A stretch of DNA of 64,000 nt from assembly GCA_050942735.1 (NCBI GenBank), contig JBMNNW010000012.1:1053-65052 (forward strand), read 5' to 3'. This DNA comes from Armatimonadota bacterium (GTDB taxonomy: Bacteria; Armatimonadota; Zipacnadia; Zipacnadales; UBA5352). Made by a program: the position numbers and the translations under genes. Each line of letters begins with the position of its first letter. Within the stretch, counting starts at the first letter, position 1. Shown here in pieces: positions 151-43,275 of this stretch. The notes under the pieces were generated by a model. The model had not been told where the DNA came from, ran no database searches, and worked only from the letters and a program-made list of their open reading frames with translations.

Positions 151-166
151 TGGCACGGGAGTTGCC
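151..166 (+). promoter_or_regulatory. sigma54 (-24/-12) promoter of cheA operon
   Basis: TGGCACGGGAGTTGCC: GG-N10-GC with TGGCACG and TTGC consensus cores, 45 nt before the cheA ATG. Confidence 0.8.
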
Positions 167-210
167 GCAGTGGCGGCCGAGCCCGAAGAAAGGGGAACTG
201 ACACGCCATC

Positions 211-2595
211 ATGCCTGAGACCGGTCGTGAGATCGTCCGACTGCTTCACGCCGCGATCGATGCTCTCAGCACGTCGCAGGCCACCGATCGGAACGCCCTC
301 TCCACCGCGGGAGCGGCCCTCGAGGAGGCCGTGGAGGCGCTGCCGCACGGCGTGCCCGGCGTCGGCACGGTGCTGAGCCTCGCGCTTGAGGCGCTGGAGG
401 GCGCATACACGGGCGCGCTTGATCGCGCGAACGCCATCTCCGCCGTGGGGGATACGCTGAGGGCCGCACTGCGGGGCCTCGACGCACCCGCCGACGCCTC
501 GCCGACCGAGGCAGCCGACGGGATCGGCCAGGCCGGACGTGCGCTCTGGGCACTGCTCGCACGCGATCCGGGGCTGTCGCCCTTCGCCGAGCCCCGTCCG
601 AGCGCATCCACCGGGAGAGCGTCCATCACCGAGCGTCTCGCGACGCTGATCAGCCTCGACCCGGAGGACACGCCCGAGCTGGCGAACCTCGCCGCGTGGC
701 TGGTCGAGCGCGCCGAGGACGCGTCTCTCGACGACGCGGCGCGGGAGGCCGCCGATCGCGCGCGCGAGCTGGTCTGCCGGGTGCTCGACGGCTCGGCCGA
801 CGACCCCGCGCAGGCACTCGACGAGGCCGCGGAGGCGCTCAGCGAGGCGGCAGAGCCGCCACCGGCCTCGCCGCCGGCCGAAGAGGCCGATGAGCCCGCC
901 TGCCTGCAGTTCGCGGGCGACGCGGCGCTGCTGGCGGAGTTCATCGCGGAGGCGCTCGATCACCTGCGCAATGCCGAAGCCGGAATGCTGGCGCTTGAGA
1001 TCGAGCCGGGCGACGGTGAGGCGGTCAACGCCGTCTTCCGAGCGTTTCACACGATCAAGGGGGCCGCCGGCTTCCTCGGCCTGGCCACCGTCCAGGAGCT
1101 TGCGCACAGGGCTGAGAACCTGCTCGTGCGGGTGCGCGAGGGAGAACTCCGTCTCACCGAGGGCCACGCGGACCTCGCGCTCGAGTCCGCCGACGCGCTC
1201 AGGCAGATGCTTGAGGACCTCGCCGGCTGGCAGGACGGTCCGCTGCCGGAGCCCCCGCGCGAGTACGATGAACTGCTCGGAAGGCTGAGCGCCCGCGGAG
1301 TCGGCTGCGCCGGTGCACCCGTCCGACCGTCGGTGGAGGCCGGTGCGTCAGCGGCGACGGCGGTCGCGCAGGCCCCGCGCAGGCGGCGGAACACCGCTCA
1401 GAACGTCGCCGAGGGCACCGTGCGCGTCGGCACCGGCCGGCTGGACTCGCTGATCAACATGGTCGGTGAGCTTGTGATCGCCAACGCGATGCTGGCTCAG
1501 GACGAGGAGCTACGCGAGCGGTCCGGGCAGGAGGTCGTGCGCAAGATCGATCAGATCTCCAAGATCACCCGCGAGCTTCAAGATGTGACCATGTCGCTGC
1601 GGATGGTGCCACTCTCGGCGACCTTCCAGCGGATGGCGCGGCTCGTGCGCGACCTCTCTCGCAAGTCGGGCAAGCAGGTGGAGCTTCTGACCGAGGGTGA
1701 GGACACGGAGATCGATCGCAACATGGTCGAGGCCATCTCCGATCCGCTGCTGCACATGGTGCGCAATGCCGTCGATCACGGCATCGAGTCGCCTCAGGAG
1801 CGGCGCGAGGCCGGCAAGCCGCCGACCGGCACCGTCGTCCTTCGCGCCTACCACGCAGCCGGCAGCGTGGCGATCGAGCTTGAGGATGACGGCAGGGGGC
1901 TGGACCGCAAGCGCATCCGCGCGAAGGCGGTGCGCGACGGGGTGATCGCCGAGGACGCTCAACTCTCCGACGAGGAGATCTTCCGGCTGATCTTCGCCGC
2001 GGGCCTTTCCACCGCCGAGCAGGTCACCGACGTCTCCGGCCGCGGGGTCGGGATGGACGTTGTGAGGCGCAACATCGAGGCCCTGCGCGGCCGCATCGAG
2101 ATCGCCTCGACGCCCGGCGAGGGCACGGTCTTCACCGCCCGCGTCCCGCTGACCCTCGCGATCATCGACGGGATGCTCCTGCGCGTGGGCGCAGAGAGGT
2201 ACATCCTGCCGACGATCAGCATCCTGCGCGCGGTCCGGCCGGAGCCGGGCAGCGTGAGCAGTGTCAGCGGGCGCGGGGAGATGATCGACCTGCAGGGCGA
2301 GCTTCTGCCGGTGCTGCGCCTCCACGACCTGCTGGGCATCGACGGCGCGCCTCGGAGCGTCTGCGACGGGCTCGTGGTGGTGACGGAGAGCGGTGGTGCG
2401 GCGGCCGCGCTGCTGGTGGATGAGTTGCTCGGCCAGCAGCAGATCGTCATCAAGTCGCTGGGCGACGGGCTGGGTAACGTGCCGGGCGTCTCCGGAGCGG
2501 CGATCCTCGGCGACGGCAGCGTCGGGCTGATCCTCGACGTGGACGGACTGCTCAGGATCGCCCACTCGTATGAGGGGGCGTACACGGCGGCGTAG
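211..2595 (+). CDS. cheA: Chemotaxis histidine kinase CheA with extra N-terminal helical region
   Basis: Hpt motif FRAFHTIKGAAGFLG, dimerisation LDSLINMVGELVI, HATPase HMVRNAVDHGIE, DDGRGLD and SGRGVGMDVV, C-terminal CheW-like domain. Confidence 0.97.
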   Translation: MPETGREIVRLLHAAIDALSTSQATDRNALSTAGAALEEAVEALPHGVPGVGTVLSLALEALEGAYTGALDRANAISAVGDTLRAALRGLDAPADASPTEAADGIGQAGRALWALLARDPGLSPFAEPRPSASTGRASITERLATLISLDPEDTPELANLAAWLVERAEDASLDDAAREAADRARELVCRVLDGSADDPAQALDEAAEALSEAAEPPPASPPAEEADEPACLQFAGDAALLAEFIAEALDHLRNAEAGMLALEIEPGDGEAVNAVFRAFHTIKGAAGFLGLATVQELAHRAENLLVRVREGELRLTEGHADLALESADALRQMLEDLAGWQDGPLPEPPREYDELLGRLSARGVGCAGAPVRPSVEAGASAATAVAQAPRRRRNTAQNVAEGTVRVGTGRLDSLINMVGELVIANAMLAQDEELRERSGQEVVRKIDQISKITRELQDVTMSLRMVPLSATFQRMARLVRDLSRKSGKQVELLTEGEDTEIDRNMVEAISDPLLHMVRNAVDHGIESPQERREAGKPPTGTVVLRAYHAAGSVAIELEDDGRGLDRKRIRAKAVRDGVIAEDAQLSDEEIFRLIFAAGLSTAEQVTDVSGRGVGMDVVRRNIEALRGRIEIASTPGEGTVFTARVPLTLAIIDGMLLRVGAERYILPTISILRAVRPEPGSVSSVSGRGEMIDLQGELLPVLRLHDLLGIDGAPRSVCDGLVVVTESGGAAAALLVDELLGQQQIVIKSLGDGLGNVPGVSGAAILGDGSVGLILDVDGLLRIAHSYEGAYTAA

Positions 2596-2694
2596 CGCCG
2601 CGGGGAGGCAAGTGACGGCAGAGGTACCTTCAGCGAGATGACCGAAGACGTGCGCGGGGCCCGGATGGGCCGTGCGGAAAGAGGTGACGAGACG

Positions 2695-3249
2695 ATGGCT
2701 CAGGCCGACGTGCTGACCGACGCCGAGGCCGCGGAAGCGGGCCCCGGCGGGAAGTACCTGACTTTCGGGCTGGGGGGTGAGGAGTACGGGCTGGAGATCC
2801 TGAAGGTGCGCGAGATCATCGGCGCGATGGACATAACATCGGTTCCGCGCACCCCGGACTTCGTGATGGGCGTGATCAACCTTCGGGGCAACGTGATCCC
2901 GGTGATTGACCTGCGCCTGAAGTTCGGGATGGCCCACGCCGATCAGACGGACGAGACGTGCATCATCGTCGTGGACGTGCTGGGGATGGAGATGGGGATC
3001 CTGGTGGACCGCGTCTCCGAGGTGCTGGACATCGCCGAGGGTGAGATTCAGCCCGCGCCAAGCTTCGGGGTGGCGGTGGACACGGACTTCATCCTCGGCA
3101 TCGGCAAGGCAGCGGACAAGGTGACGATCCTGCTCAACATCAGTGAGGTGCTGTCGTCGGTCGAGGTCGGCGAGATTAGCCGGCTGGCAGACTGCACACT
3201 CCCCGAAGATGTCGGGGAGGAGACGGAAGAGGTGGAGGATCAACCGTGA
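2695..3249 (+). CDS. cheW: Chemotaxis coupling protein CheW
   Basis: YLTFGLGGEEYGLEILKVREII, VPRTPDFVMGVINLRGNVIPVIDLR; ORF track starts at 2638, ATG 2695 preferred. Confidence 0.95.
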   Translation: MAQADVLTDAEAAEAGPGGKYLTFGLGGEEYGLEILKVREIIGAMDITSVPRTPDFVMGVINLRGNVIPVIDLRLKFGMAHADQTDETCIIVVDVLGMEMGILVDRVSEVLDIAEGEIQPAPSFGVAVDTDFILGIGKAADKVTILLNISEVLSSVEVGEISRLADCTLPEDVGEETEEVEDQP

Positions 3250-10250: not shown

Positions 10251-10277
10251 TAAAGCCCGTGTGTAAACGCCCGATAT
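10251..10277 (+). promoter_or_regulatory. sigma28 promoter of flagellin
   Basis: TAAA-N15-CCCGATAT, near-perfect sigma28/SigD consensus. Confidence 0.85.
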
Positions 10278-14404: not shown

Positions 14405-14420
14405 TGGCACGTGACTTGCA
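14405..14420 (+). promoter_or_regulatory. sigma54 promoter of fliS
   Basis: TGGCACGTGACTTGCA, perfect GG-N10-GC, starting 6 nt after the fliD stop. Confidence 0.85.
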
Positions 14421-15211: not shown

Positions 15212-16402
15212 CTACGCTTCGAGCATCAGGTCGCCGGGGCGGAGAGTGTTGCCGTGGGCCATCAGCAGGCCGCGCTGGATGGCGTTGTCGAGCTGGCGGA
15301 GGTTGCCCGGCCAGCTCTGCCGCCGCAGCAGCTCCACCGCCTCCGGGGAGATCGCATCGGGACCGCGCGCGTGGCGGCGGAGGTGCTTGCGCAGGAAGAA
15401 GCGCGCGAACGGCTCGATGTCCTCCGGGCGCTCGCGCAACGGCGGGAGGCTCAGCGGCATGACCGCCAGCCGGTAGTAAAGGTCCTCCCGGAAGCGCCCC
15501 TCCTCCACCGCGCGACGAAGGTCCTGGTTGGTCGCGCAGATCAGCCGCACGTCCACCTCGATCGGCTTCGTCCCACCCAGTCGCGTGAATGTCAGGTCCT
15601 GGGCGAACCGCAGCAGCTTCACCTGATTGTCCATGCTCATCTCGCCGATCTCATCAAGGAAGATCGTCCCCCCGTCGGCGACCTCGCAGAGCCCCTTCTT
15701 CGCCTGCGTGGCCGAGGTGAACGCGCCCTTCTCGTGACCGAAGAGCTCGCTCGTGAGGAGTTGCTCGGGCAGGGAGCCGCAGTTGATCGGGACGAACGTC
15801 CTCTCCGCCCGATCGCCCATGAGATGGATTGCGCGGGCGAGGAAGTCCTTGCCGGTGCCGGTCTCTCCCTCGATGAGCACCGGGGTGGGTGTGCCGGCCA
15901 CGCGCGCGGCGGCGGCGTAAGCCCGTCTCACCCGTGAGCTTCGACTCATCACGTGCTCGAAGCCGTGGCGCTCGCGAAGAACCTGCCAGAGGTACCCCGC
16001 CTCATCGCCCGGCGCGGTGTCTCCGCCGGTGCCCAGCACCTCTGAGGCACGGGACAGCAGCTCCTCGCGGGCGAAGGGCTTCTGAAGGTAGTGCGCTGCG
16101 CGCAGCCCGAGCGCCTCGACGGCCGTCTCGAAGCTCGGGTGCGCGGTGATGATGATCGCGGGCGCGTTGACGCCCTTCGCCCGGAGGTGGCCGAGCAGTT
16201 CGACGCCGTCGGCGTCCGGGAGCATGCGATCGAGGATCAGCAGATCGGGCGGGCGGTCTCCGATGGCCTCCGCCAGCGCTGAGGCGCCATCCGCAGCGGT
16301 GCGCAGCTCGCAGTCAAGTTCGCCGAGGGTTCGGCCGACGGTCGCGAGCATCTCCGGGTCGTCGTCAACGATGAGCACGGTGGGCCTGTCGGCCTCTGAC
16401 AC
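15212..16402 (-). CDS. sigma54-dependent response regulator (receiver + AAA+), lacking the C-terminal HTH
   Basis: Receiver LIVDDD, DRMLP, KPF; Walker A GETGTGK; GAFTSA loop; Walker B IFLDEI; REDLYYRL; WPGNLRQL; the protein ends shortly after sensor II. Confidence 0.93.
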   Translation of the reverse strand: MSEADRPTVLIVDDDPEMLATVGRTLGELDCELRTAADGASALAEAIGDRPPDLLILDRMLPDADGVELLGHLRAKGVNAPAIIITAHPSFETAVEALGLRAAHYLQKPFAREELLSRASEVLGTGGDTAPGDEAGYLWQVLRERHGFEHVMSRSSRVRRAYAAAARVAGTPTPVLIEGETGTGKDFLARAIHLMGDRAERTFVPINCGSLPEQLLTSELFGHEKGAFTSATQAKKGLCEVADGGTIFLDEIGEMSMDNQVKLLRFAQDLTFTRLGGTKPIEVDVRLICATNQDLRRAVEEGRFREDLYYRLAVMPLSLPPLRERPEDIEPFARFFLRKHLRRHARGPDAISPEAVELLRRQSWPGNLRQLDNAIQRGLLMAHGNTLRPGDLMLEA

Positions 16403-16436: not shown

Positions 16437-17216
16437 TCAGGAGTTCAGACGCGTGTTGAGCGCGGCGCGCAGCCGCGCGATCGCCTGGGTGTGAATCTGA
16501 CAGATGCGCGATTCGGTCACGTCGAGCACCAGGCCGATCTCACGCATCGTCAACTCCTCGTGGTAGTAAAGGCTGATGACCATCCGCTCGCGCTCTGACA
16601 GTTCGCCGATGCACTCGACGAGGAGGCGGCGCATCTCGGCGCGGTCGGCGACCGCGTGCGGGAGCCACTCGGGGCGTTCGGCGTCAATGCTCGCGTTGGT
16701 GGGGGCATGCGCATCGCCCGAGGACTCCGAGAGGCTCTCGAGAGAGACAAGCGCGGCCGTGGAGGCGTCGCGCAGCAGCTTGCGGTACTCGGCGGCCGTG
16801 AGGCCCAGCCGCTCGATGATCTCCGCCTCATCGGGCTGGCGGCCAAGCTGCTGACGTAGTTCGGCGACGGCCGCCTCAAGCTCGCGGTAGCGCCCGCGCA
16901 GGCCGCGCGGCGCCGGGTCCATCCTGCGCAACTCATCGAGGATCGCCCCGCGCATGAGCGTACATGCGTAGGTGCGGAAGCTCGCGCCGCGCCCCGGATC
17001 GTAGCGATCGACGGCCCTGATCAGCCCGATCATGCCCGCGCTGACAAGATCCTCGCGGTCAACCTGCGCGGGCAGACCTGAGGCGACGCGGTCCACCTCG
17101 TAACGCACGAGGTCAACGTTCTCGGTGATCAGGTGCTCGCGTTCAACCGGCGACAATCCGGCGCTCTCAGCGGTCTGAAACACGGGTGAACCCCCTGATC
17201 GGGTGATGCGACTCAT
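16437..17216 (-). CDS. fliA: RNA polymerase sigma28 factor FliA/WhiG
   Basis: DLVSAGMIGLIRAVDRYD, FRTYA, RGAILDELR, region 4 LSERERMVISLYYHEELTMREIGLVLDVTESRICQIH. Confidence 0.93.
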   Translation of the reverse strand: MSRITRSGGSPVFQTAESAGLSPVEREHLITENVDLVRYEVDRVASGLPAQVDREDLVSAGMIGLIRAVDRYDPGRGASFRTYACTLMRGAILDELRRMDPAPRGLRGRYRELEAAVAELRQQLGRQPDEAEIIERLGLTAAEYRKLLRDASTAALVSLESLSESSGDAHAPTNASIDAERPEWLPHAVADRAEMRRLLVECIGELSERERMVISLYYHEELTMREIGLVLDVTESRICQIHTQAIARLRAALNTRLNS

Positions 17217-17394
17217 GATCGACGAGGTGGATGCAGATGGGCCTGCCTCGCGCCGGCGACGAGGACCTCGTTGAGGGCATCTTGAGTGAAATGTCACGAG
17301 AACTCCGCAAGTTCATTCCTCGTAAGATGATCCCGCACCTCCAACTCGTGCCGGTTCTTCGTGAGATAAATGCGTGCGCCGGGGCGTCTTCGCA

Positions 17395-21346: not shown

Positions 21347-22054
21347 TCAGCCACCCGCCCCCGCGCGTAGTCTCCCCGCGATCCGCGCCCGGATGCTCGC
21401 GGCCGCACGACCGTAGAACTCCTGCGCTCGCCCGGGCGTGATCTGCAGCAGTGCGGCGATCTCCGGGAAGCTCAGCCCGTCCTCGAAGTACAGCGTCAGG
21501 AGCCGCCGCTGATCCTCCGGCAGCGCCGAGACGGCCCCCACCAGCGCGCCGCCGCCTCCCTCGTGCGGCCGACCGGGCAGCAGCAACTCGGGACTGACGC
21601 CGAAGACCAGCCCGGCCTCGGCGAAGCGCTCGGCAAGCCGCCCCTCGTCGAGGCCGAGGGCGCGCGCGACCTCGCGATCCTCGCTCACGTCCGGGCAGCA
21701 TTCCGACAGCGCCGAGCACAGCGGCGCGATGCGGCACGGCCACGCCGCCTCGAACCACGAGCTTGACAGCGCCCACGCGCGCATGCCGCCAACCACCCGG
21801 CCCATCACATCGCTCTCAGGCGTCAGCTCTCCGGTGCGGCCGTCAGCAAGCTCCAGCACGGTCACGAGGCCCTGGCTCATCAGCAGACCCTCGTCGAGCC
21901 ACGGTGAGATGCGCGCGCCCAGCCGCCCCATCGCAACCCGCACAAGCGCCGTCAGCGGGCGGAGGGCCTCGCAGTCACGGGTGACGATGAGCGGCTCTCC
22001 GCCACCCTCGCCGGAACTTCGCTCGCCTCGCCTCTGAGTTGTGCCTCGTGCCAT
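21347..22054 (-). CDS. Degenerate FliA-like sigma factor paralog
   Basis: Region-4 HTH LPEDQRRLLTLYFEDGLSFPEIAALLQIT; N-terminal part collinear with FliA region 2 but missing its conserved motifs. Confidence 0.65.
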   Translation of the reverse strand: MARGTTQRRGERSSGEGGGEPLIVTRDCEALRPLTALVRVAMGRLGARISPWLDEGLLMSQGLVTVLELADGRTGELTPESDVMGRVVGGMRAWALSSSWFEAAWPCRIAPLCSALSECCPDVSEDREVARALGLDEGRLAERFAEAGLVFGVSPELLLPGRPHEGGGGALVGAVSALPEDQRRLLTLYFEDGLSFPEIAALLQITPGRAQEFYGRAAASIRARIAGRLRAGAGG

Positions 22055-22092
22055 CTCGACTCTCCCACCCGGTCCGCTCAGATGCCCGCCCG

Positions 22093-22362
22093 TCATTGCA
22101 CGTAGCGCGGGATGTTCGTCAGAAGCTCGGTCGTGAACCCGGCCAGCGAGCGAAGCATCCACGAACCGCAGGCCAGCACCGTCAGGCCGATCGCCACGAT
22201 CTTCGGGACGAATGTGAGCGTCATCTCCTGCACCTGCGTCACCGCCTGCACAATCCCCACCAACACGCCGATCAGCAGGGCAACGCCCAGCACCGGCCCG
22301 CCGAGCTTGAGCGTCGCGATGAACATGTCCCGCGCGAGGTTCACGTAGATGTCCGTCGGCAC
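22093..22362 (-). CDS. fliQ: Flagellar export protein FliQ
   Basis: GILVGIVQAVTQVQEMTLTFVPK-type motif (GVLVGIVQAVTQVQEMTLTFVPK). Confidence 0.95.
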   Translation of the reverse strand: MPTDIYVNLARDMFIATLKLGGPVLGVALLIGVLVGIVQAVTQVQEMTLTFVPKIVAIGLTVLACGSWMLRSLAGFTTELLTNIPRYVQ

Positions 22363-26514: not shown

Positions 26515-26748
26515 TCACTGCACCACTCGCCCCCACTGCGCGAGAGTGGCGGGCGTTCCGCCACCCTCATCACGCAGCGAGCGCAGGTACTCCACCGCCT
26601 CGGCAATCACGGTGTCCACATCCTCGCGCACCACGAAGGCGTTGCCGCTGGTGAGTGTGATGACGGTGTCGGGCACCGCTTCGATCCGCTCAACCAGCAG
26701 TGCGTTGATGACCAGTTCTCTGCCGTTCAGCGCCGTGAGGCGTATCAT
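26515..26748 (-). CDS. flbD: Flagellar protein FlbD
   Basis: MIRLTALNGRELVINALLVERIEAVPDTVITLTSG. Confidence 0.9.
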   Translation of the reverse strand: MIRLTALNGRELVINALLVERIEAVPDTVITLTSGNAFVVREDVDTVIAEAVEYLRSLRDEGGGTPATLAQWGRVVQ

Positions 26749-26762: not shown

Positions 26763-26778
26763 TGCAAGGCCCGTGCCG
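26763..26778 (-). promoter_or_regulatory. sigma54 promoter motif upstream of flbD-motAB
   Basis: CGGCACGGGCCTTGCA on the minus strand (GG-N10-GC), 8 nt after the flgE stop; predicted TSS falls only about 4 nt before the flbD ATG. Confidence 0.7.
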
Positions 26779-26785: not shown

Positions 26786-28006
26786 CTACTGCATGAGCCG
26801 GACGACCTCGTCGAGCATCTGATTCGCGGTGGAGATCACCCGCGTTGAGGCCTGGAAGCCCCGCTGGGTCGTGATCATGTCCACAAACGCACGCGTCAGG
26901 TCCACGTTGGACATCTCGAGGTTGCGGGCTACCAAGCTCCCGCGCCCCCCGGTGTTCGAGGCCCCGACCGCCGCGGCGCCGGAGGCGGGTGCTTCGGTGA
27001 AGAGATTGCCGCCGATGCGCTGCAGGCCGCCGGGGTTGGCGAACGATGCCATCGCGATCTGCCCGAGCGCCCGCGTGCGGCCGTCGGAGTACTGTCCCTC
27101 AACCACGCCGCCGTCGCCGATCCCCACGCCTGTCAGAGACGAGGCGGGGCGCCCGTCCTGCGAATGCACCACCACCGAGTGCGCCTGCGCCAGCGCCGTG
27201 ACTGAGGCGAGGTCGAGGGTGACGCTCTGCGGTGAGGCCGCGCCGTTGGTCAGCGCGACGTCGAGGTTGAGCACTCCCCCGGCGCTGAGCCGCCCGGCGG
27301 TGTCGAACTGCAGGGTCCCGGTGGCGGTGCTGCCCTCGCAGAGGGCCTCGACCTGCCACTCGTTGACATTCGCGGTGTTGGTGAATGTGATCTCCACGGG
27401 GTGCATCTCTCCGAGCGAGTCGTAGATGGAGATGGTGCTGGCGACCGAGTCGCCGACGGCGGCGGTGGCGTCGAGGTTGCCCCTCAGCAGCGCGCCGCCG
27501 GTGGCCTCAGGTGGCGCGAGTTCGCCGATGTTGAAGCTCAGCGCTGAGATCGGCCCGGTCGCGTTCACCCCGCCGCTTGCGTCGGCCATCCAGCCCATCA
27601 CTTTCATCCCGCTGGCCGCGGCCACCAGGGTGTTGGTGTCATCGAGTGAGAATGAGCCGTCGCGGGAGTAGTACTGTCCCTGCCCGTCGCCGAGCACGAA
27701 CATGCCCTGTCCCTCGATCGCGCAGTCAAGCGGCTGACCGGTCGGCTCCAGCGACCCCTGCGTGTGCTGGACGGTGACCGACCCGAGTGAGACGCCCGAC
27801 CCGACCTGCATCGGATTCGCGCCGCCGATCCCGACGTCACTGCCCGATCGCCCGCCCTGCAGCGTCGCGTAGAGCGCGTCCTGGAAGGTCGTCCGGCCCT
27901 CCTTGTATGCCACCGTGTTGGCGTTGGCGATGTTGTTGCCGACGACGTCAAGTCGGCTCTGAAACGCCACGGTCCCCGACAGTCCTGAGAACAAAGCCCG
28001 GTTCAT
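26786..28006 (-). CDS. flgE: Flagellar hook protein FlgE
   Basis: MNRALFSGLSG, VVGNNIANANTVAYK, LEMSNVDLTRAFVDMITTQRGFQA. Confidence 0.95.
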   Translation of the reverse strand: MNRALFSGLSGTVAFQSRLDVVGNNIANANTVAYKEGRTTFQDALYATLQGGRSGSDVGIGGANPMQVGSGVSLGSVTVQHTQGSLEPTGQPLDCAIEGQGMFVLGDGQGQYYSRDGSFSLDDTNTLVAAASGMKVMGWMADASGGVNATGPISALSFNIGELAPPEATGGALLRGNLDATAAVGDSVASTISIYDSLGEMHPVEITFTNTANVNEWQVEALCEGSTATGTLQFDTAGRLSAGGVLNLDVALTNGAASPQSVTLDLASVTALAQAHSVVVHSQDGRPASSLTGVGIGDGGVVEGQYSDGRTRALGQIAMASFANPGGLQRIGGNLFTEAPASGAAAVGASNTGGRGSLVARNLEMSNVDLTRAFVDMITTQRGFQASTRVISTANQMLDEVVRLMQ

Positions 28007-29277
28007 CGATGGTGCTCCTTTCGCTGTGTCACGGTCGCCACGTCTCGGGCGAATCGCGCGGTGGGTCGCGGTGGATCGTGGGGCAGGCGAAGCGCAACTT
28101 CGGTGCCGCGCGGGCACGCGTGATGGAGCGTCAGCGTGCCGCGATGGGCCACCGCGATCCCCCGCGCGACCGTCAGCCCCAGCCCCTGGTGGAGCGCAGG
28201 GTGAGTGGTGAAGAAGGGCTCGGTGGCCCGTCTCCGCACCTCTGCGGTCATGCCCGGCCCGTCATCGATCACGCGGATCTCGCTTCGACGCCCATCGCCG
28301 GCGGTGCGCAGCAGCACGCGTCCCTCAGGCCCCATCACCTGCAGCGCGTTGAAGACGAGGTTCACGACGCACTCACCGAGCTGACCCGCGTCGCCCCAGG
28401 CCGGGGCGATGGCGGCGAGATCCGTCTCGACGCGCACCTCGCGAAGCCCCGGCCAGTGTCCGCATACTCGTCTGACCAGCCCCGCGACCTCGTCGGCAAT
28501 TCTGCTGAGGTCGAGCGCGCGCATCTCCGCGGCCACCGGACCAGCGGTGAACGCCTGCATCGAGCGCATCAACTCCGCCCCTTCGGCGGTGGAGCGCTCG
28601 ATCCGTCCGAGCAACTCCACGATGTCATCCGATGACGCCCTCTCCCTGAGCAACTGCGCGTTGCCGAGGATCGCGGCGAAGACGTTGCCCAGCGCGTGTG
28701 AGACGCCGAACGCCAGGTTGCCGACCGTCCGGAGATGCTCGGGCGCCCCATCCGCGCCGTCCTCGGGCGCGACGGCCAGCGTCGCCGCCGCCGAGAGCGC
28801 AAGGTCGGGCAGCAGATGCATCCGACCGCAGGGGCGCCCCTCGCCCCGTGCGCCGATTGCCAGCAGCCCGAGCGGGCCCGTCCGCCTCTCGCTGTGCAGC
28901 GGCACGGCGGCCCACGAGCGCACCTCGAGATCGCGCAACCTCAGCCGCAGAGCCGACCACGGCTCGCGCCAGCCGTCCGAGCTCTGACAGGCGCGCTCGA
29001 ACACGCGCGCGGCCTGCGGGCCCAGGTCCCAGCGCGCGTGCGCGGTGCCCGCTCCATCGCGCACGGCCAACGTCGCGCTGAGCGCCTGCGGGTACTCCGT
29101 CGGTCTGAGCATCACCGCGGCGTCGCAGCAGAGCAGCTCGATGGCGCTCTCGACCACCGACTCCGTCGCCCTCGTGCGTCCCGTGAGCGCGGCCCGCGTG
29201 AGACACTCGAGCGCGCGCGCGCGAATCCCGGGCTCGTCTGTCACTGCAGTTCGTCCGACGAGTGTGTCGATCGCCAC
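28003..29277 (-). CDS. Soluble sensor histidine kinase with atypical H-box, GAF-like N-terminus
   Basis: HisKA VSHALGNVFAAILGNAQLL; N-box NLVFNA; DDGPGM; EPFFTT; GLGL; no TM segment seen; GGAGG RBS plus GTG at 29277. Confidence 0.85.
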   Translation of the reverse strand: MAIDTLVGRTAVTDEPGIRARALECLTRAALTGRTRATESVVESAIELLCCDAAVMLRPTEYPQALSATLAVRDGAGTAHARWDLGPQAARVFERACQSSDGWREPWSALRLRLRDLEVRSWAAVPLHSERRTGPLGLLAIGARGEGRPCGRMHLLPDLALSAAATLAVAPEDGADGAPEHLRTVGNLAFGVSHALGNVFAAILGNAQLLRERASSDDIVELLGRIERSTAEGAELMRSMQAFTAGPVAAEMRALDLSRIADEVAGLVRRVCGHWPGLREVRVETDLAAIAPAWGDAGQLGECVVNLVFNALQVMGPEGRVLLRTAGDGRRSEIRVIDDGPGMTAEVRRRATEPFFTTHPALHQGLGLTVARGIAVAHRGTLTLHHACPRGTEVALRLPHDPPRPTARFARDVATVTQRKEHHR

Positions 29278-29692: not shown

Positions 29693-31474
29693 TCACGCCA
29701 TCACGTCGATCGTGCTGCTGCCGGGCTCCGAGCGCGGCGCGCGGGAGTGATCGTCGGATGGCCGCATCCGAGCGGGCGTCCGAGACGGACTGCGCCCGGT
29801 GTCACCTCGGTGTGCTCCGTGATCGGCTCCGCCGCGCGCCGTGAAGCGCACATCGAACTCCGCGACCTGCAGATTCTGCCCGGCGAGTTGCTCGCGAACC
29901 TGGCTCTCCACCGCGCGCAGTGTCATCGCCGTCTCCGGCCGCTCCGCGATCAGCGTCGCCCGCACCTGCCCCTCGCGCAGTGAAAGCTGCAGTTCGCAGC
30001 GTCCAAGCTCCGGTGGATCGACCTCCACCACCAGCCGCTGAGTCCGACCTGCCGCCAGCTCCACCGGTGAGATGCGGGCGGGCTCGCGGATCGTGAACAC
30101 CGCCGCTGCCGGCTCACTCGCCGGCGGAACTCGGAGACCGGCGCTCTCCGGCACGCCGAACTCACCGGCGACCAGTGACGGACGGTGAATCTCCGCTCCG
30201 GGCGCACGGGCCGGGACGTGACCGCTCGATGAGCGAGCGTCGCCCGCAGGCCCCTCGCGCAGCATCGCCCGCCGCGGTGGTTCGATCGGCTCCCCGCGGT
30301 CCGGAAGCGGCGCGGGACGCGGCTCCTGCACGGCGGCCCCGAACCTCGGCGCACCCGTCTCCGCGGGAGCGCGCCCGTCCTTGAGACCCTCCGCCCGCCG
30401 TGGGTACGCCACGTCTTCGTCCGACGTCTGACCGGGCGTGGGAGCCTCGAAGGGATGCGGTGGCGGCGAGGAACTCGGCCTGCCGCGTTCGGCTGCCGGA
30501 GCGGTCGGCACCTCGCGGACGGCCGCCTGCTCCGACGCCGGGAGATGACCCGCGCCGGCCGCCCGATGCTCAGGGCCGTCGGCGGCGAGGATCCGCAGAG
30601 GCGCCGATATCGGCGGCTGCGTTGACCGATCCGGGGGGCGGATGTCCGCCCGAACTCCGGACGGATCGCGCGTCGGCTCCTCCGGCGCTCGCTGCCTGGC
30701 GTCGGGTATCACCGTGGTCGAGCCGACGGCGTGGCCGCGTTCCTGAGCAGGCGGCGGGACGCGAGGCGAAGCGACAGGCCTGATCTCCGCCTCCGGCCTG
30801 CCGCCATCCCGCGCCGGTGGGGAGGCCACGGCCTCCCGAGCCGGCAGGCGGGGGACGGTCTCCTCCGCGTGAGGCGGATCGTCCGGCACGGCGATCGGGC
30901 GCGGCATCGGCATCTGCCGGGATTGTTCGCCGCCGATCGGCGCGGTCCGCGGTCCGATCAGGTCGGTGAGGCCCTCGGGATCGAGCGTCAGTTCGAGCGT
31001 CTGGCGCGACCGGACGGCCCCGCTGCTCACTGTCGGGGGCCGCTCAGGTGGCCCCGGCCTCCCCCCTGCGCCGGGGTCAGTGTCCTCAGTCAACTGAAAG
31101 ACGGGATCATCGGCGCTGGCCCGCCCCCCGGCGTCCGGCGACGCCGTCCGTGGGGCGCTCGCGAGCGTCGTCGCTGCCTCAGGCATGCGCCCGGCCGGGC
31201 GGACCTCGGAAGCCTGCGGCGAATCCTCCACCTCGGCGATCGCGGGCCGCGGTGGAGCCTCGTGCCGCGCTGAGGGCATCGCCTGGCGCTCGCGGGCATG
31301 CGCCCCGCCGTGTTCGGCCACCACCGGCACCGGCTCGATCACCGGCGGCGTGCTCCACGCGGCGATCAGCGCAAGAAAGTCCACCGGCTCGTGTGTCGCC
31401 CGGGCGCGGTCGGTCGCCGGTCGGATCACCGTCGTCCCGCCGTCGCCTTCGAGGTGCGGTGGGTGGTGCATCAT
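29693..31474 (-). CDS. fliK: Hook-length control protein FliK
   Basis: Long Pro/Ala-rich region then C-terminal VEVDPPELGRCELQL...LREQLAGQNL domain; upstream of flgD. Confidence 0.82.
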   Translation of the reverse strand: MMHHPPHLEGDGGTTVIRPATDRARATHEPVDFLALIAAWSTPPVIEPVPVVAEHGGAHARERQAMPSARHEAPPRPAIAEVEDSPQASEVRPAGRMPEAATTLASAPRTASPDAGGRASADDPVFQLTEDTDPGAGGRPGPPERPPTVSSGAVRSRQTLELTLDPEGLTDLIGPRTAPIGGEQSRQMPMPRPIAVPDDPPHAEETVPRLPAREAVASPPARDGGRPEAEIRPVASPRVPPPAQERGHAVGSTTVIPDARQRAPEEPTRDPSGVRADIRPPDRSTQPPISAPLRILAADGPEHRAAGAGHLPASEQAAVREVPTAPAAERGRPSSSPPPHPFEAPTPGQTSDEDVAYPRRAEGLKDGRAPAETGAPRFGAAVQEPRPAPLPDRGEPIEPPRRAMLREGPAGDARSSSGHVPARAPGAEIHRPSLVAGEFGVPESAGLRVPPASEPAAAVFTIREPARISPVELAAGRTQRLVVEVDPPELGRCELQLSLREGQVRATLIAERPETAMTLRAVESQVREQLAGQNLQVAEFDVRFTARGGADHGAHRGDTGRSPSRTPARMRPSDDHSRAPRSEPGSSTIDVMA

Positions 31475-32019
31475 CGCGCGGCCGTCCTTTCCTGCAGGTA
31501 GCGCTCCACCCGGCGGACGTAGGCTTGCGTCTCAGCGTAAGGCGGCACCCCGTCGTAACGTCTGACGGCTCCCGGCCCGGCGTTGTATGCAGCGAGCGCC
31601 AGGGTCCGATCACCGAAGCGCTCAAGCTGCGCGCGGAGATAGCGCGCACCGCCGTGCACGTTCTGCGCCGGATCCCAGGGGTCCGTCACTCCAAGAGCGC
31701 GCGCGGTGCCGGGCATCAGTTGCATCAGCCCCATCGCACCCGCCGAGGACCGGCAGCGGGGATCGTAGCCCGACTCCGCGCGGACGACCGCGTGGATCAG
31801 GTCCTCGCTCAGGTCATTCACCCGAGCCGCCTCCTCGATGATCGCGTCGAAGCCCGCCCCGTCATCTGTCCTGATCCCCGTGGCCTGACCGGCCACCGCG
31901 CGGTTGAGCGCGGTGGCGAACTCCACCGGTCGCGCGGTGCCCGTCCCCGCGGTGAGGCCTCCGAGGCGGGCCTCGATCGTTGAGATCCGCTGCATGATCG
32001 TCGGCAGTCTGCTCAGCAC
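31471..32019 (-). CDS. Soluble lytic transglycosylase (SLT family)
   Basis: AVVRAESGY, SAGAMGLMQLMP, ALAAYNAG, PPYAETQAYV; GGAGG RBS plus GTG at 32019. Confidence 0.92.
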   Translation of the reverse strand: MLSRLPTIMQRISTIEARLGGLTAGTGTARPVEFATALNRAVAGQATGIRTDDGAGFDAIIEEAARVNDLSEDLIHAVVRAESGYDPRCRSSAGAMGLMQLMPGTARALGVTDPWDPAQNVHGGARYLRAQLERFGDRTLALAAYNAGPGAVRRYDGVPPYAETQAYVRRVERYLQERTAAR

Positions 32020-32041
32020 TGATGTCCTCCGCGGCTTCTCA

Positions 32042-32539
32042 TCAGACGCTGTCAGGGTCGGCGGCCGGTGAGCCGACGAGCGCCGCGTGACGGTCGGCGC
32101 GGTGTCGGCTGATGGCGGCCTCGTTGAGGTCGCGTTGCTCGCGGAGCATCTCCTCGCGTGCGTGCTCGGCCTCGCGTCGCTCTGAGAGTCGCTCCAGTGT
32201 CCGGCGTGCCCGCGATGCCTCCACCAGCTCAGTCCGCCGGGTCTCGGCCTGGCGCTCGGCCTCGTCGAGGCGCTGCTGCTGATTCGTGAGCCTGCGGCGG
32301 AGGTCGGCGAGCACGCACGCGGTGTGCTCGACCTCACCCAGCGCCACGCTCGCGCCGCCTCCAGTGCCCGGGCCCCGAAGACCCGCGATGATCGCGTCAT
32401 GCCGCAGGCGCATCTGCTCGAGGTCGGCGCGTCGGCCGCGAACAACGCTCTGCGCGGTCGCGAGTCGGCGCCGGGCCTGCTCCTCCTCGCGGCATCGCAG
32501 CTCAAGGGCTGTCTGCAGTGGGAAGTGATACTTGCGCAC
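32042..32539 (-). CDS. fliJ: Flagellar export chaperone FliJ
   Basis: MRKYHFPLQTALELR start, coiled coil; directly after fliI. Confidence 0.85.
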   Translation of the reverse strand: MRKYHFPLQTALELRCREEEQARRRLATAQSVVRGRRADLEQMRLRHDAIIAGLRGPGTGGGASVALGEVEHTACVLADLRRRLTNQQQRLDEAERQAETRRTELVEASRARRTLERLSERREAEHAREEMLREQRDLNEAAISRHRADRHAALVGSPAADPDSV

Positions 32540-32610
32540 GCGGCCTCACCGTGCTCTGCGGCGTCATTGCTGCTCGGGTCGCTTAACCTTCGCCGCAAGC
32601 GCTCGTTTCT

Positions 32611-37652: not shown

Positions 37653-37668
37653 GGCAATGTCCGTGCCG
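37653..37668 (-). promoter_or_regulatory. sigma54 promoter of the flgB operon
   Basis: CGGCACGGACATTGCC on the minus strand (GG-N10-GC), 7 nt after the rpoN stop. Confidence 0.8.
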
Positions 37669-37674: not shown

Positions 37675-39021
37675 CTACGCCGCCCGGTAGATCCGCCGCC
37701 GCTCCGTCGAAGACGGGATCCCCAGCGCACGGCGGTACTTGTTCACCGTCCGCCGCGCCAGCGCGAACCCCCGCGCGTCCATCTCCGACTGCAGCTCCTC
37801 ATCGGTCAGCGGTGCGCTCGCCGGCTCACCCGCGAGAACCTCCCGCAGCACGGTCTTCGCCGGGAGTGCGTCATCGAAGAACACGCCGAAAGGCACGCTT
37901 TCGCCCGAGGGCATCTGCACCAGCTTGCCCATCGTCGCCCGCGACACCGTCGACTCGTGCAGCCCCGTCAGCTCGGAGATGCGCTTGTGCGTCAGCGGCC
38001 GGTGCGCAAGCGGCCCGTCGAGGATGTACCCGCGCTGCTGGCCGGCGATCGCGCGGCTGATGCGGTAGAGACTCCGCTCGCGCTGCTGCAGCGACCAGAT
38101 GAGCTGCCGCGCCGAGCGCACCTGCGCGCGAGCCCGCGTCGTCGCCTCATCCTCCGCGCGGCTCTGCCTGCGGCGCATCCGCTCATCCAGCCGCCGGTAC
38201 GCCTCCGCAACGCGCACCGTCAGCGCCCGCGAGGTCAGCAGCGCCACCTCGATCTCATCACCGTGCGCGCTGAGGATCACGTCCGGGCGCCTCGCCTCCG
38301 CGTTGCCGGGCAGCAGATGCTGCCACCTCACCCGGAACTGCTCTCCGGGGTAGGGCGTAAGCCGCGAGCGGATCGCCCGTAGCGCCTCCCGCGACTGCTC
38401 CCGCGTTAGACCCAGCGCCGAGCACAGCGCCGGCCAGCCTCCCCGCTCAAGCGCCCGATCACATTGCTCCACCACACGTCGCACGTACTCCGGCACGTCC
38501 GGCAGTTCGTCGAGCTGCAGCAGCAGGCACTCGCGCAGATTCCGCGCGCCCACCCCCGGTGGCGCCACCGCCTGCACTGATCGCAGGGCCGCCTCGACCT
38601 CAGGCAGATCAGCCTCAAGCTCCAGCGCCGCCTCCAGCGTGGAGATCGTGAGATAGCCGCGTTCGTCGATGCACTCGATCAACCACGCCGCGATCTCACG
38701 CATCCGCCCCGCCGTCGTGGGCCCGACGCGCCGGTGCAGCTCATCACGCAGGTTGTGCCGCGATGGCGCACGCGTGGTCGAGTCGCCGGACACCTCGCTC
38801 CACCCGCGCCGCGCCTGCTGCTCCGGCGCGACCGTCGGGATCTCCTCGCAGTCGAACTCGCACTCGACCTCCAGCGCGGGATTCTCCGCGGCCTCCTCGC
38901 GCATCCGCGCCATCAGCGCCAGGCACGGCAGCTCGAGCAGTTCGCTTCGCACGATGAGTTGGAAGTTCACGACGGGGACCTGCTGCGCGCCCACGATCAG
39001 ATCATTGCGTAGCTCCAACAC
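37675..39021 (-). CDS. rpoN: RNA polymerase sigma54 factor
   Basis: Region I (QQ...LELP.LAL...EEAAENPALE), GVGARNLRECLLLQL, HTH LHESTVSRA, RpoN box ARRTVNKYR; start estimated at GTG 39021. Confidence 0.93.
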   Translation of the reverse strand: MLELRNDLIVGAQQVPVVNFQLIVRSELLELPCLALMARMREEAAENPALEVECEFDCEEIPTVAPEQQARRGWSEVSGDSTTRAPSRHNLRDELHRRVGPTTAGRMREIAAWLIECIDERGYLTISTLEAALELEADLPEVEAALRSVQAVAPPGVGARNLRECLLLQLDELPDVPEYVRRVVEQCDRALERGGWPALCSALGLTREQSREALRAIRSRLTPYPGEQFRVRWQHLLPGNAEARRPDVILSAHGDEIEVALLTSRALTVRVAEAYRRLDERMRRRQSRAEDEATTRARAQVRSARQLIWSLQQRERSLYRISRAIAGQQRGYILDGPLAHRPLTHKRISELTGLHESTVSRATMGKLVQMPSGESVPFGVFFDDALPAKTVLREVLAGEPASAPLTDEELQSEMDARGFALARRTVNKYRRALGIPSSTERRRIYRAA

Positions 39022-39068
39022 CTCGGGGGACTTCCTTTCGCGCCGCCTCGAATCTCTTCGTCGGAGGT

Positions 39069-39095
39069 ACTTCGGCGCCGCAGGCGGCAACTTGA
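39069..39095 (-). promoter_or_regulatory. Putative sigma28-type promoter upstream of rpoN
   Basis: Minus strand TCAA-N15-GCCGAAGT; exact sigma28 spacing. Confidence 0.45.
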
Positions 39096-39225
39096 GTCCT
39101 CAACGTGATGGCGCTGACATCACCCCCGCCGACAGAACCGGCCGGCGATGCGCCCTCGGAGGTGGATCGGAAGCGGTGCGCGAAGGGGAGTTGCGCTCGT
39201 TCACAGCAGCCCGCGGAGGCATCTC

Positions 39226-41211
39226 ATGTCAAGACTGGTGGTCGTCATGTGCGGTGTGTTCTGTGTCGCGATCCCGACGGTCTGCCCGGCGCAGGTACCC
39301 GTCGTGCAGGACGGAGAGCCCGCTGCGGTGGTGGTCACCGCCGACAACCCGACCCCCGTCGCGCAGTATGCCGCCGGGGAGTTGATCGAGCACGTCCGCG
39401 AGGCCACCGGCGCGGCGCTGCCGATGGCGGTGGAGTCCGCGATCCCCGACGGCTACGCGGGCAGGATCTTCGTCGGAGCGACCGACGCGGCCCGCGCGCA
39501 GGGCATCGACCCCGCTGAACTCGCGCTCGAGGAGACCGTGCTGCGCGTGGTCGGCGGCGACCTCTTCATCGTCGGCAGTGAGGACGATGAGGCCGACCCG
39601 CTCAGTCAGAGCAACGAGCACAGCGGCACGCTCTTCGGCGTCTATGAGATACTCCAGCGCTATCTCGGTGTGGTCTGGGCGTGGCCCGGGGAGTTGGGCC
39701 GCTTCGTCCCGCGCACCGACACCGTCGTCATCGCCGACGAACTCGACGAGACCATCGCGCCCGCACTCGCCTTCCGCGGCATCCGATGGGGGTACACCAG
39801 CCGGATCGTCGTCCACGGCGAGGACTACGACCCCAACCATGAGCGCATCGCCTTCTCCCGGGAGGGCATCGAGCGCTACGGCCGCGACCTGCAGGCGTAC
39901 CTGCGCCGCCACCGCATGGGCCGCTCACAGGCAAAGCCGCCGGTCGGGCATTACTTCAGCGGCTGGTGGGAGACGCTCGGCGAGGAGCACCCGCACTGGT
40001 TCATGCTCAACGAGCAGGGCGAACGCGGGCCGCTCCCCGGCGAGGGCACCAGGCACGTGGCAATGTGCGTCTCCGAGCCCGAACTGCACCGGCACATCAT
40101 CGACCAGTGGGACGGCCGGTCCCCGATCCGACTCGGGGAGGTGGACGCGCGGGACCGATGCCGCTGTGAACGGTGCCGCAGTTGGGACGCTCCCCAGCCC
40201 GAGGTCATCCCGCCCGTGCTCGCCCATGACGAGCGGTCGTTCTACCACCCCATCTGGGTGAGTGACCGCTATGCCCGCTTCTGGAAGACCATCCATGAGA
40301 TGGCCGTCGAGCGCAACCCCGACGCGCAGGTGACGACGTTCCTTTATCAGAACTACTTCCCGGCGCCCGCCGAGGTCACCGATCTGGGCCCGAACATCTA
40401 CGGGGAGTTCGTGCCCTGGGGCGATGATCAGGTGGACTTCTTCCCGATGACCGAGGGTGCGCTGGAGTGGCTCAAAGAGCAGTGGATCGGCTGGTCGGAG
40501 ACCGGCATCACCATGTCGTACCGCCCCAACTACATGCATGACGGCTACACCATGCCACATCTCGACACACGGCAGGCCGCCGAGTTCTTCAAGTTCGCCT
40601 TCGAGCACGGCATGATCGGCACCGACTTCGACAGCCTCACCGGCCAGTGGGCGACGCAGGGACCCAAGCTCTACGTGCACATGCGACTGAACGCCGACCC
40701 CCGCCTCGAACTCGACCGGATACTCGATGAATACTACTCCGTCTTCGGCCCGGCGGCTGAGCATGTGCGGGATTACTTCGGCTACTGGGAGGACTACGCG
40801 GTCGAGCATCACCAGCATATCATCGATCTCTTCCGCGAGGTGGGCAACCGCTGGCAGCGCTTCCCTCTCAAGGCGCATGAGGCCTACCCGCCCGAGTGCT
40901 TCCCGCCCGCAGAGGCGTTGCTTGAGGCCGCGCACCAGGCCGCCGCGGATGCAGACCCCGAGTACCTCGCGCGGGTGGAGTTCCTTCAGGCCGGGCTGGA
41001 GCACGCGAAGCTCTGCGGCCAACTGGCCGCGCTCTTCGACGGCTCGTACAACATCCCTCGCGACAGCGAGCGCTTCGGCCAGGCGCGGGAACTCCTGCGC
41101 GAACTGGTGAGCTTCCGCAGGGCGCATGAGCACATGTACATCTCCGATTACGCATACGGCGCGGCGTGGCGCGAGGTGCGCCGGTGGAACATCAACTCGC
41201 TCTTCGACTGA
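39226..41211 (+). CDS. Secreted DUF4838-like (glycoside-hydrolase-like) protein
   Basis: Signal peptide; N-terminal AAGEL..HV...TG and GTLFGVYEILQRYLGVVWAWPG; HPHWFML, CVSEP, CRCERC, SDRY motifs. Confidence 0.65.
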   Translation: MSRLVVVMCGVFCVAIPTVCPAQVPVVQDGEPAAVVVTADNPTPVAQYAAGELIEHVREATGAALPMAVESAIPDGYAGRIFVGATDAARAQGIDPAELALEETVLRVVGGDLFIVGSEDDEADPLSQSNEHSGTLFGVYEILQRYLGVVWAWPGELGRFVPRTDTVVIADELDETIAPALAFRGIRWGYTSRIVVHGEDYDPNHERIAFSREGIERYGRDLQAYLRRHRMGRSQAKPPVGHYFSGWWETLGEEHPHWFMLNEQGERGPLPGEGTRHVAMCVSEPELHRHIIDQWDGRSPIRLGEVDARDRCRCERCRSWDAPQPEVIPPVLAHDERSFYHPIWVSDRYARFWKTIHEMAVERNPDAQVTTFLYQNYFPAPAEVTDLGPNIYGEFVPWGDDQVDFFPMTEGALEWLKEQWIGWSETGITMSYRPNYMHDGYTMPHLDTRQAAEFFKFAFEHGMIGTDFDSLTGQWATQGPKLYVHMRLNADPRLELDRILDEYYSVFGPAAEHVRDYFGYWEDYAVEHHQHIIDLFREVGNRWQRFPLKAHEAYPPECFPPAEALLEAAHQAAADADPEYLARVEFLQAGLEHAKLCGQLAALFDGSYNIPRDSERFGQARELLRELVSFRRAHEHMYISDYAYGAAWREVRRWNINSLFD

Positions 41212-41253
41212 TTTGCCGGCGACCAGGCCGCGCCTCGTCGGGCAGCGGCGCTC

Positions 41254-42207: not shown

Positions 42208-42221
42208 TCACCTGCCCGATC

Positions 42222-43202
42222 TCACTCGATATACTGCGCCTCTTCGGTCGTCAGCGTGATCTCACCGGCCTGCTCGAGGTCAAGCGCAAGGTTCACGAAC
42301 TCCTTCTGCGCGTTCTCCACGTCCCGCACCAGCATCGGCCCGAGGAACTCGATCTCCTGCTCGAGGATCTCCCGCGCCCGCTCCGAGACGTTCGCGAAGA
42401 TGCGCTCCTTGATCGCCTCATCCACGCCCTTGAGCGCCTGTGCGATAGTTGCGTGCTCCAGGCCCCTCAGCAGCGTCTGCAGATCGTGATCGCTCAACTG
42501 CACCACGTTCTCGAACGTGAACAGGCGGTCCTCGACGCGGTCGGCCAGCTCGGCGTCGCGCTCCCGCAGCTCGCACAGCAGCCGCTTGCTCGAGCCGCGG
42601 TCCATGTCCTCGAGCAGATGCACCACGAACTGCAGCCCCCGGTCGGCCCGGCCCTCATCGTCAACGCGGAATGTCTGCCGCCCCAGCACCTCCGCGATCG
42701 CCTCGACCGCGCCCGGCGCCAGCCGCTCCATCTTCGCAACCCGCAGCGCAAGGTCAGAGCGCGCCTCCGGCGGCCACTCCTTGAGAACCTGCGCGGCCTT
42801 CTCCGGCGCCAACTGGCTCAGCACCACCGCCACCATCTGCGGCGTCTCCTCCCCGAGCATCCGCCGGATGCTGCCCGCCTCCGCGTTGTTGAGGCTGCGC
42901 AGCCGCTGCAGCGCCGTCCTCCGCCGCTCGTCCTCGACGGTGAGCGACTGCCGGCCGAGCACCTCTGCCATCAGGCGCTCGGCATGGGCGGACGCCTGCA
43001 GGCCGTCAGGGCGCGCGATCGCCTCTTCAAACTGCCGCAGCGCCGCCTCCTGCTCGGCACGATCGATGCGCCCAAGCTCCGACATCGCCGAGATGAGCTG
43101 CTCCGCGTCCATCTCCGGCATGTGGCGGCAGACGCTCGCCGCCGCGTCCACGTCGAGACTTGCGAGAACGATCGCTGCTTTGCGGATCTCCGGAGCGTCC
43201 AT
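42222..43202 (-). CDS. fliG: Flagellar motor switch protein FliG
   Basis: RKAAIVLASL, ETPQMVAVVL, LFTFENVV, IFANVSERAREILEQEIEFLGP. Confidence 0.95.
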   Translation of the reverse strand: MDAPEIRKAAIVLASLDVDAAASVCRHMPEMDAEQLISAMSELGRIDRAEQEAALRQFEEAIARPDGLQASAHAERLMAEVLGRQSLTVEDERRRTALQRLRSLNNAEAGSIRRMLGEETPQMVAVVLSQLAPEKAAQVLKEWPPEARSDLALRVAKMERLAPGAVEAIAEVLGRQTFRVDDEGRADRGLQFVVHLLEDMDRGSSKRLLCELRERDAELADRVEDRLFTFENVVQLSDHDLQTLLRGLEHATIAQALKGVDEAIKERIFANVSERAREILEQEIEFLGPMLVRDVENAQKEFVNLALDLEQAGEITLTTEEAQYIE

Positions 43203-43259
43203 CACCAGGCACCGATCCCCCGGCGGGCAGAGATTGTCGTCACCGTCCGTGCAGAGCAC

Positions 43260-43275
43260 TGCAATCGGCGTACCA
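43260..43275 (-). promoter_or_regulatory. sigma54 promoter of fliG-fliM
   Basis: TGGTACGCCGATTGCA on the minus strand (GG-N10-GC). Confidence 0.8.

Follow-up and report, generated by a model that had tools for sequence, protein, structure and literature searches.

A 64,000-nucleotide (nt) stretch of DNA from an Armatimonadota bacterium (assembly GCA_050942735.1, contig JBMNNW010000012.1), here called the window, carries a single flagellar and chemotaxis supercluster between 1 and ~43.3 kb, as judged by NCBIfam and Pfam. Five sigma-54 promoter motifs in this cluster, and probably a sixth within a histidine kinase gene, are on balance likely to be working promoters, opened by a FlgR-like activator that lacks a helix-turn-helix (HTH) DNA-binding domain and that acts without an enhancer; their cramped placement directly behind the preceding genes is ancestral. 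This reading is built on the presence, enrichment and conservation of the motifs, and on the domain architectures and synteny of the genes around them.

Two of the five motifs are on the plus strand. The −24/−12 motif of cheA (151-165, TGGCACGGGAGTTGC; 151..166, TGGCACGGGAGTTGCC) lies between cheX and cheA and starts 14 nt past the last base of the upstream TGA (135-137), which closes a gene identified as cheX from L127, a locus of the same organism. The fliS motif (14405-14419, TGGCACGTGACTTGC; 14405..14420, TGGCACGTGACTTGCA) lies behind fliD and starts 6 nt past its TAG (14397-14399). The other three are on the minus strand: the flbD motif behind flgE (26778-26764, CGGCACGGGCCTTGC; 26763..26778, CGGCACGGGCCTTGCA) starts 8 nt past the flgE TAG (26788-26786), the flgB motif behind rpoN (37668-37654, CGGCACGGACATTGC; 37653..37668, CGGCACGGACATTGCC) starts 7 nt past the rpoN TAG (37677-37675), and the fliG motif, upstream of fliG (43275-43261, TGGTACGCCGATTGC; 43260..43275, TGGTACGCCGATTGCA), starts 33 nt past the stem of a terminator-like hairpin. 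This hairpin (43308..43334, minus strand; 11 pairs, of which 9 are G-C, and a TTGTATGT tail) stands after an SLH/collagen-repeat gene and upstream of the fliG promoter. A first-pass annotation of the same DNA had placed the five motifs at these coordinates and on these strands, at distances of 14, 6, 8, 7 and ~30 nt; reading of the junctions returns all five motifs and the same distances, with 33 nt for the last, and every gene name given in that annotation is confirmed by NCBIfam or Pfam.

The annotation had also proposed a scan with a −24/−12 pattern. Run over the 64-kb window with a consensus fixed a priori (TGGCACG-N4-TTGC) and at most one mismatch, such a scan gives five matches where 1.43 are expected; no shuffle out of 100 gave as many. 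All five sites have no more than one mismatch to the extended form of the consensus, TGGCACG-N4-TTGCW, in which GG and GC are exactly 10 nt apart. A post-hoc pattern, YGGYACG-N4-TTGC, gives five matches against 0.12 expected. Weaker matches at 46871, 47031 and 62303, which have TGGTACGCC in common with the fliG site, were considered as extra sites; the first two were rejected, being the 3' ends of tRNA-Arg genes.

In DNA of ~69% GC, motifs of this kind might be chance or compositional features and not promoters at all. The tRNA-derived strings at 46871 and 47031 illustrate how this can come about, and neither the bare GG-N10-GC (1543 against 1498 expected) nor the consensus at two mismatches (20 against 28.7 expected) is enriched in the window. 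However, the one-mismatch matches exceed expectation in a way that no shuffle reproduced, all five are intergenic and oriented toward the next same-strand flagellar or chemotaxis gene, and motifs are kept at orthologous positions in genomes of 49-70% GC. Chance is thus a very improbable explanation.

The comparison with relatives supports the view that the motifs act like genuine sigma-54 promoters, as three of them (flgB, fliS and fliG) are conserved at orthologous junctions. Across 27 collected orthologous sites the GG, A5, T13 and GC are invariant. The flgB motif is found upstream of flgB in eight loci (L001-L008, 49-67% GC), where it matches 10-12 of 12 consensus positions, and wherever rpoN is the neighbour (L001, L002, L003, L005 and L007) it follows the rpoN stop by 3-54 nt. 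The fliS motif lies 0-13 nt behind the fliD stop in five loci (L039, L041, L042, L043 and L129), and the fliG motif recurs after a hairpin and upstream of fliG in L002 and L003. In a metagenome scan with FliP most of the contigs recovered were distant or short, and none spans the flgE-flbD junction in close relatives.

Little sequence separates these promoters from the genes on either side. The spacing between TTGC and the start codon is 45 nt for cheA (predicted leader ~34 nt), 33 nt for fliS (ATG at 14453; predicted leader ~22 nt with a GGAGG Shine-Dalgarno sequence), 25 nt for flgB (GTG start at 37628; predicted leader ~14 nt) and ~55 nt for fliG (start near 43205). For flbD it is only 15 nt (ATG at 26748), which predicts a leader of ~4 nt and a nearly leaderless mRNA. 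Very short leaders seem normal in the clade, since in L001 and L002 just 19 nt separate the flgB promoter from the start codon. Four of the promoters, none with an upstream terminator, stand within arrays of same-strand genes (cheX-cheA, fliD-fliS, flgE-flbD and rpoN-flgB), with spacers of 37-73 nt that provide room only for a promoter and a short leader. Because of this internal position, read-through transcription from upstream is also possible.

A sixth candidate promoter (CGGCACCGAAGTTGCG, 28093..28108, minus strand) lies ~90 nt upstream of the flgE ATG, in the 3' end of the kinase gene, where it is read as the codons R-G-T-E-V-A. It looks like a promoter that has been maintained inside coding sequence. 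In L001, L002, L124 and L126 a perfect TGGCACGGA(A/G)GTTGC occupies the same position in the kinase gene and encodes G-T-E-V-A; the window copy has a synonymous G-to-C change at position 7. The −12 element of the site depends on the Val codon GTT, which is present in all five genomes and which makes up 6.2% of the Val codons in the window. In L005 and L007 a sigma-54 motif is found in the intergenic sequence between flgD and flgE. The flgE ATG overlaps the kinase stop as ATGA (28003-28006, minus strand), so translation of the kinase and hook genes is probably coupled within the flgB...flgE array.

The regulators expected to act at these sites are encoded in the cluster itself. The rpoN gene for sigma-54 (37675..39090, minus strand) specifies a core-binding domain, a DNA-binding domain and the RpoN box RRTVNKYRRALGIP. 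The FlgR-like activator is a protein of 396 aa (15212..16402, minus strand), which the first-pass annotation had called HTH-less. Pfam concurs, giving only REC (PF00072), Sigma54_activat (PF00158, 2.3e-66; the Walker A sequence of this AAA+ domain is GETGTGK) and AAA_lid_14; no HTH_8 is matched, and the protein ends 3 residues past the lid. None of its 17 closest ortholog clusters (76-100% identity, 385-410 aa) has HTH_8, and all have the same or a nearby C-terminus, ...LMLE(A/G); a convergent gene ends 25 nt past the activator stop, and no relic HTH is found near that stop by tblastn. For these reasons the lack of an HTH is not an assembly artefact. The loop at residues about 224-229 is GAFTSA, not GAFTGA, across the clade P0001-P0064, with or without an HTH, and is GAFTNA in the more distant relative L007; GAFTGA is the near-invariant form of this sigma-54-contacting loop.

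Directly upstream of the activator gene lies the gene for a FliA-like sigma factor with Sigma70 regions 2, 3 and 4 (16437..17297, minus strand), and the same FliA-activator synteny is found in L039, L041, L042, L126 and L129. The kinase gene (28003..29277, minus strand; likely start GTG at 29277) is located between flgD and flgE and encodes a FlgS-like cytoplasmic histidine kinase with HATPase_c and a weak GAF match. No transmembrane segment is detected in this protein, its maximum 19-residue hydropathy being 1.33.

The first-pass annotation took the squeezed layout of the promoters to fit an HTH-less activator and enhancer-independent activation. This is not borne out by the comparison of activators with and without an HTH. 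The next tier of activator homologs (62-74% identity, 433-470 aa) has HTH_8, and L039 (P0018) and L043 (P0022) are HTH-bearing true syntenic orthologs, with the order fliA, activator, then convergent flgN, fliS and fliD. The fliS promoters of these two loci are 2 and 3 nt past the fliD stop, and in the more distant HTH-bearing Armatimonadota L005 and L007 the flgB promoter is 42-54 nt behind the rpoN stop. Since HTH-bearing orthologs share the squeezed layout, it is ancestral to the clade, older than the loss of the HTH and independent of HTH state. The layout is compatible with enhancer-independence, but it is neither a consequence of it nor diagnostic of it. The overall interpretation offered in that annotation thus holds in part: the activator is indeed HTH-less and no shared enhancer is found, but crowding does not serve as evidence for that state.

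The HTH itself was apparently lost on at least four occasions. A neighbour-joining tree of the shared region, drawn without support values, puts HTH-less proteins at four or more separate places among HTH-bearing ones: a main clade (P0001-P0017), P0025, P0028 and P0038, plus a more distant HTH-less group. Repeated independent loss suggests that the activator can do without its HTH. This is in line with the account in PMC3372290 of Campylobacter jejuni FlgR and Borrelia burgdorferi Rrp2, which are reported there to have a C-terminal domain and yet to activate independently of an enhancer. The P0025 gene is complete and has the same synteny, with its promoter abutting the fliD stop.

Enhancers can sit inside coding DNA, and the promoters could be enhancer-dependent, with sites in the coding DNA of cheX, fliD, flgE and rpoN that serve an HTH-bearing activator whose gene lies beyond the window; this activator could work by itself or form a hetero-oligomer with the HTH-less protein. 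Rhodobacter sphaeroides provides the model for such an arrangement, since its HTH-less activator FleT functions in a hetero-oligomer with FleQ, which binds DNA. As here, FleT is an HTH-less activator from a flagellar cluster with its own dedicated rpoN; however, FleQ is a second activator there, whereas none is visible in the flagellar cluster here within the 64-kb window. The close orthologs (62-74% identity) that keep HTH_8 in the same layout are consistent with enhancer-dependence, and in these, because of that layout, any enhancer would lie in coding DNA. It is also compatible with the view of the genome being limited to 64 kb.

The search for a shared palindrome upstream of the sites, proposed beforehand in the first-pass annotation, speaks against such enhancers. 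At 20-300 nt upstream of the six sites, shared exact 7-10-mers and shared 4-6-nt dyads are both within the range of random windows, in a search by exact k-mers and dyads that is coarse and that degenerate sites would escape. No dyad specific to HTH-bearing loci is seen in the 3' end of fliD. A GCGATC-N8-GATCGC dyad ~175 nt upstream of the fliS promoter was rejected as an enhancer, as it encodes a conserved AIDEQIA and is stronger in HTH-less than in HTH-bearing genomes. The repeated loss of the HTH, which argues that it is dispensable, and the lack of a second activator in the cluster point the same way, and dependence on enhancers seems unlikely. The comparison with NtrC-type systems leads to a similar picture. 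As in the present system, the promoter is of the −24/−12 type and the AAA+ activator receives its input through REC, but NtrC-type activators carry a Fis-type HTH and their dyad enhancers lie 80-150 bp upstream; the activator of the window has no DNA-binding domain, and no shared dyad was found at that distance.

Several points weigh against the reading of five or six working promoters served by an enhancer-free activator. To the coarseness of the enhancer search and the lack of support values in the tree must be added that the analysis covers 64 kb of genome, so that activators encoded elsewhere are not countable. Promoter activity and start sites rest on sequence: run X3 (48% of sampled words), the sole run labelled RNA-Seq, was rejected as start-site evidence, its contig depth being flat at ~3 over flagellar and non-flagellar genes and so DNA-like. 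The flbD motif is kept in only one of four relatives, recurring in L124 at 51 nt from the flbD ATG and being absent from L001, L002 and L126, and in the window the flbD GAGGAGG Shine-Dalgarno sequence falls upstream of the predicted transcription start site. The cheA site is without comparative support, as no orthologous junction was found among cheA N-terminal homologs, all of which are too distant; of the distant cheA loci, L128 lacks a sigma-54 motif and L131 carries a sigma-28 promoter.

These last observations might be taken to mean that only the flgB, fliS and fliG sites are promoters, and that the motifs at cheA and flbD are either peculiar to the lineage or without function. Chance would account for about 1.4 one-mismatch matches, and a distance of 15 nt between the flbD motif and the ATG would suit this restriction. 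However, the cheA motif matches without any mismatch, which is expected ~0.1 times or less by chance, and it lies in an intergenic gap pointing at cheA. Likewise, the flbD motif has normal spacing in L124, and the flgB promoter of L001 and L002 places a short leader at the most strongly conserved site of all. A restriction to three promoters is therefore rather improbable, and the wider reading, in which all five motifs and probably the sixth are working promoters, remains the preferred one.

In this preferred reading, the holoenzyme of RNA polymerase and sigma-54 would form closed complexes at the five or six sites, the cytoplasmic FlgS-like kinase would phosphorylate the REC domain of the FlgR-like activator, and the AAA+ ring would contact sigma-54 from solution, remodel it via the GAFTSA loop and open the promoters. 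The activator most likely acts from solution, without an enhancer, because it has no HTH, as shown for Helicobacter pylori FlgR. We infer the promoter activity, the start sites and the enhancer-free activation of this scheme from the features set out above, and the pairing of kinase and activator in a phosphorelay from their co-location only. Positive feedback is likely, because the kinase gene lies in the flgB operon and the fliA and activator genes lie at the end of the flbD array.

Flagellin would be transcribed from a sigma-28-type promoter, TAAAG-N14-CCCGATAT (10251..10277, plus strand), which is upstream of the flagellin gene and is the sole such match in the window. Two further sigma-28 sequences were noted in cheA regions: a perfect promoter, TAAA-N15-GCCGATAA, at ~590-620 of the distant cheA locus L131, and a weaker sigma-28-like sequence in the window's own organism (L127, 1-60), before a cheY-cheX pair and upstream of the cheA sigma-54 site.

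A bolder version of the scheme may be suggested, more tentatively. The activator could be enhancer-free throughout the clade, with or without an HTH, so that the HTH could be lost at least four times with the layout unchanged; the flgE promoter could be held in the kinase gene by rare-codon selection; and nearly the whole regulon, including the kinase, the activator and FliA, could lie behind sigma-54 promoters and generate positive feedback. If this is true, the pairs of HTH-bearing and HTH-less orthologs, which have 73% identity, the same synteny and the same promoters, would amount to a natural experiment on escape from enhancers.

The supercluster is divided between the two strands. The plus strand carries cheA, cheW, a methyl-accepting chemotaxis protein gene, cheR, a REC domain protein gene, cheX and cheB, followed by fliC, fliD, fliS and a flgN/fliT-like gene. 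On the minus strand, from high to low coordinates, are fliG, fliM, rpoN, flgB, flgC, fliE, fliF, fliH, fliI, a transglycosylase gene, fliK and flgD, then the histidine kinase gene, flgE, flbD, motA, motB, fliL, fliN, fliO, fliP, fliQ, flhA and flhB, and, after flhB, the genes for the FliA-like sigma factor and the sigma-54 activator. The nearest genomes are metagenome bins, from Armatimonadota (72% identity in FliF) and from 'candidate division WS1' (one bin, 62%), and the window sequence is found in bioreactor and biogas metagenomes. In one metagenome run, X1 (99% of sampled words), contigs have one extra base at 31060 (in fliK) and one at 39065 (near the rpoN 5' end), which may reflect differences between strains, or else one assembly may contain indel errors.

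Several neighbouring genes deserve mention. A DUF4838 gene (39148-41211, plus strand) lies on the opposite strand between fliM and rpoN; it looks like an insertion into the flagellar cluster, because in L001-L003 fliM and rpoN are on the same strand and about 0.1-1 kb apart. Between fliQ and flhA, with fliR after flhA, is a gene for a conserved protein of ~230-260 aa (window ~21347-22162, minus strand) that matches sigma-70 region 4 only. It is also present in L039 (4586-5260), L041 (4355-5065) and L126 (14516-15235), and may be a cluster-specific regulator. An open reading frame (ORF) of 375 aa (31471-32598, minus strand) has a lytic transglycosylase domain only at residues 250-347; at this position L126 has fliJ (165 aa) and SLT (188 aa) as separate genes, and the ORF may be a FliJ-SLT fusion or may be over-extended.

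Directly upstream of the fliG promoter is the gene for a 625-aa protein (43359-45236, minus strand), with weak, sub-threshold Pfam matches to SLH and to the collagen-like triple-helix repeat; the same neighbour of fliG is kept in L002 and L003. Beyond the flagellar genes, six tRNA genes (three Ser and three Arg) at 46603-47951 are followed by a large-type signal recognition particle RNA (48112-48377) directly upstream of dnaX, ybaB and recR. Two of the tRNA-Arg 3' ends (...GGCGTACCA) give the sigma-54-like TGGTACGCC strings on the minus strand.

Activation of sigma-54 promoters without an enhancer is known from H. pylori, where the HTH-less FlgR acts in this way (Brahmachary et al. 2004, as described in PMC3372290 and PMC7064773), and the FlgSR/sigma-54 programme is reviewed in PMC7064773. 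The likeness to the present system, as read from its sequence, is close: both have a REC and AAA+ activator without a DNA-binding domain and a cytoplasmic partner kinase, and in both, hook and basal-body genes such as flgB and flgE are served by sigma-54 promoters and flagellin by a sigma-28 promoter. They differ in that the present system is from another phylum (Armatimonadota), that its flagellar operons include the genes for sigma-54 (rpoN), the kinase and the activator, that fliF, fliG, fliM, the export apparatus, cheA and fliS are also behind sigma-54 promoters, and that the loop is GAFTSA and not GAFTGA.

The C. jejuni FlgSR system (Joslin and Hendrixson 2008), as summarised in PMC3372290 and PMC7064773, is enhancer-independent despite a C-terminal domain, and in this it resembles the HTH-bearing orthologs found here with the same layout. 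In contrast, its MS-ring, C-ring and export genes are, according to these summaries, sigma-54-independent and sensed by FlgS, whereas here such genes are downstream of sigma-54 promoters. HTH-less activators occur in many Epsilonproteobacteria, Chlamydiae and Bacteroidetes (PMC3372290). Chlamydia CtcC and Borrelia Rrp2 are sigma-54 activators that also work without enhancer binding (PMC3372290), but they serve non-flagellar regulons and have other input domains and contexts.

The Armatimonadota case is thus a new example of the enhancer-independent activation known for FlgR, CtcC and Rrp2, and not a new mechanism. Among the papers searched, none links Armatimonadetes, flagella and sigma-54, and the phylum is unmentioned in a 2025 survey of sigma-54 regulons. 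FlgS/FlgR/sigma-54 control of flagella, and with it enhancer-independent activation, would be extended to an uncultured and little-studied phylum. The comparison of loci also indicates that HTH-less activation should not be deduced from crowded promoters alone. Lastly, the orthologs with and without an HTH provide a tractable set of proteins for asking whether the HTH of a flagellar activator does anything.

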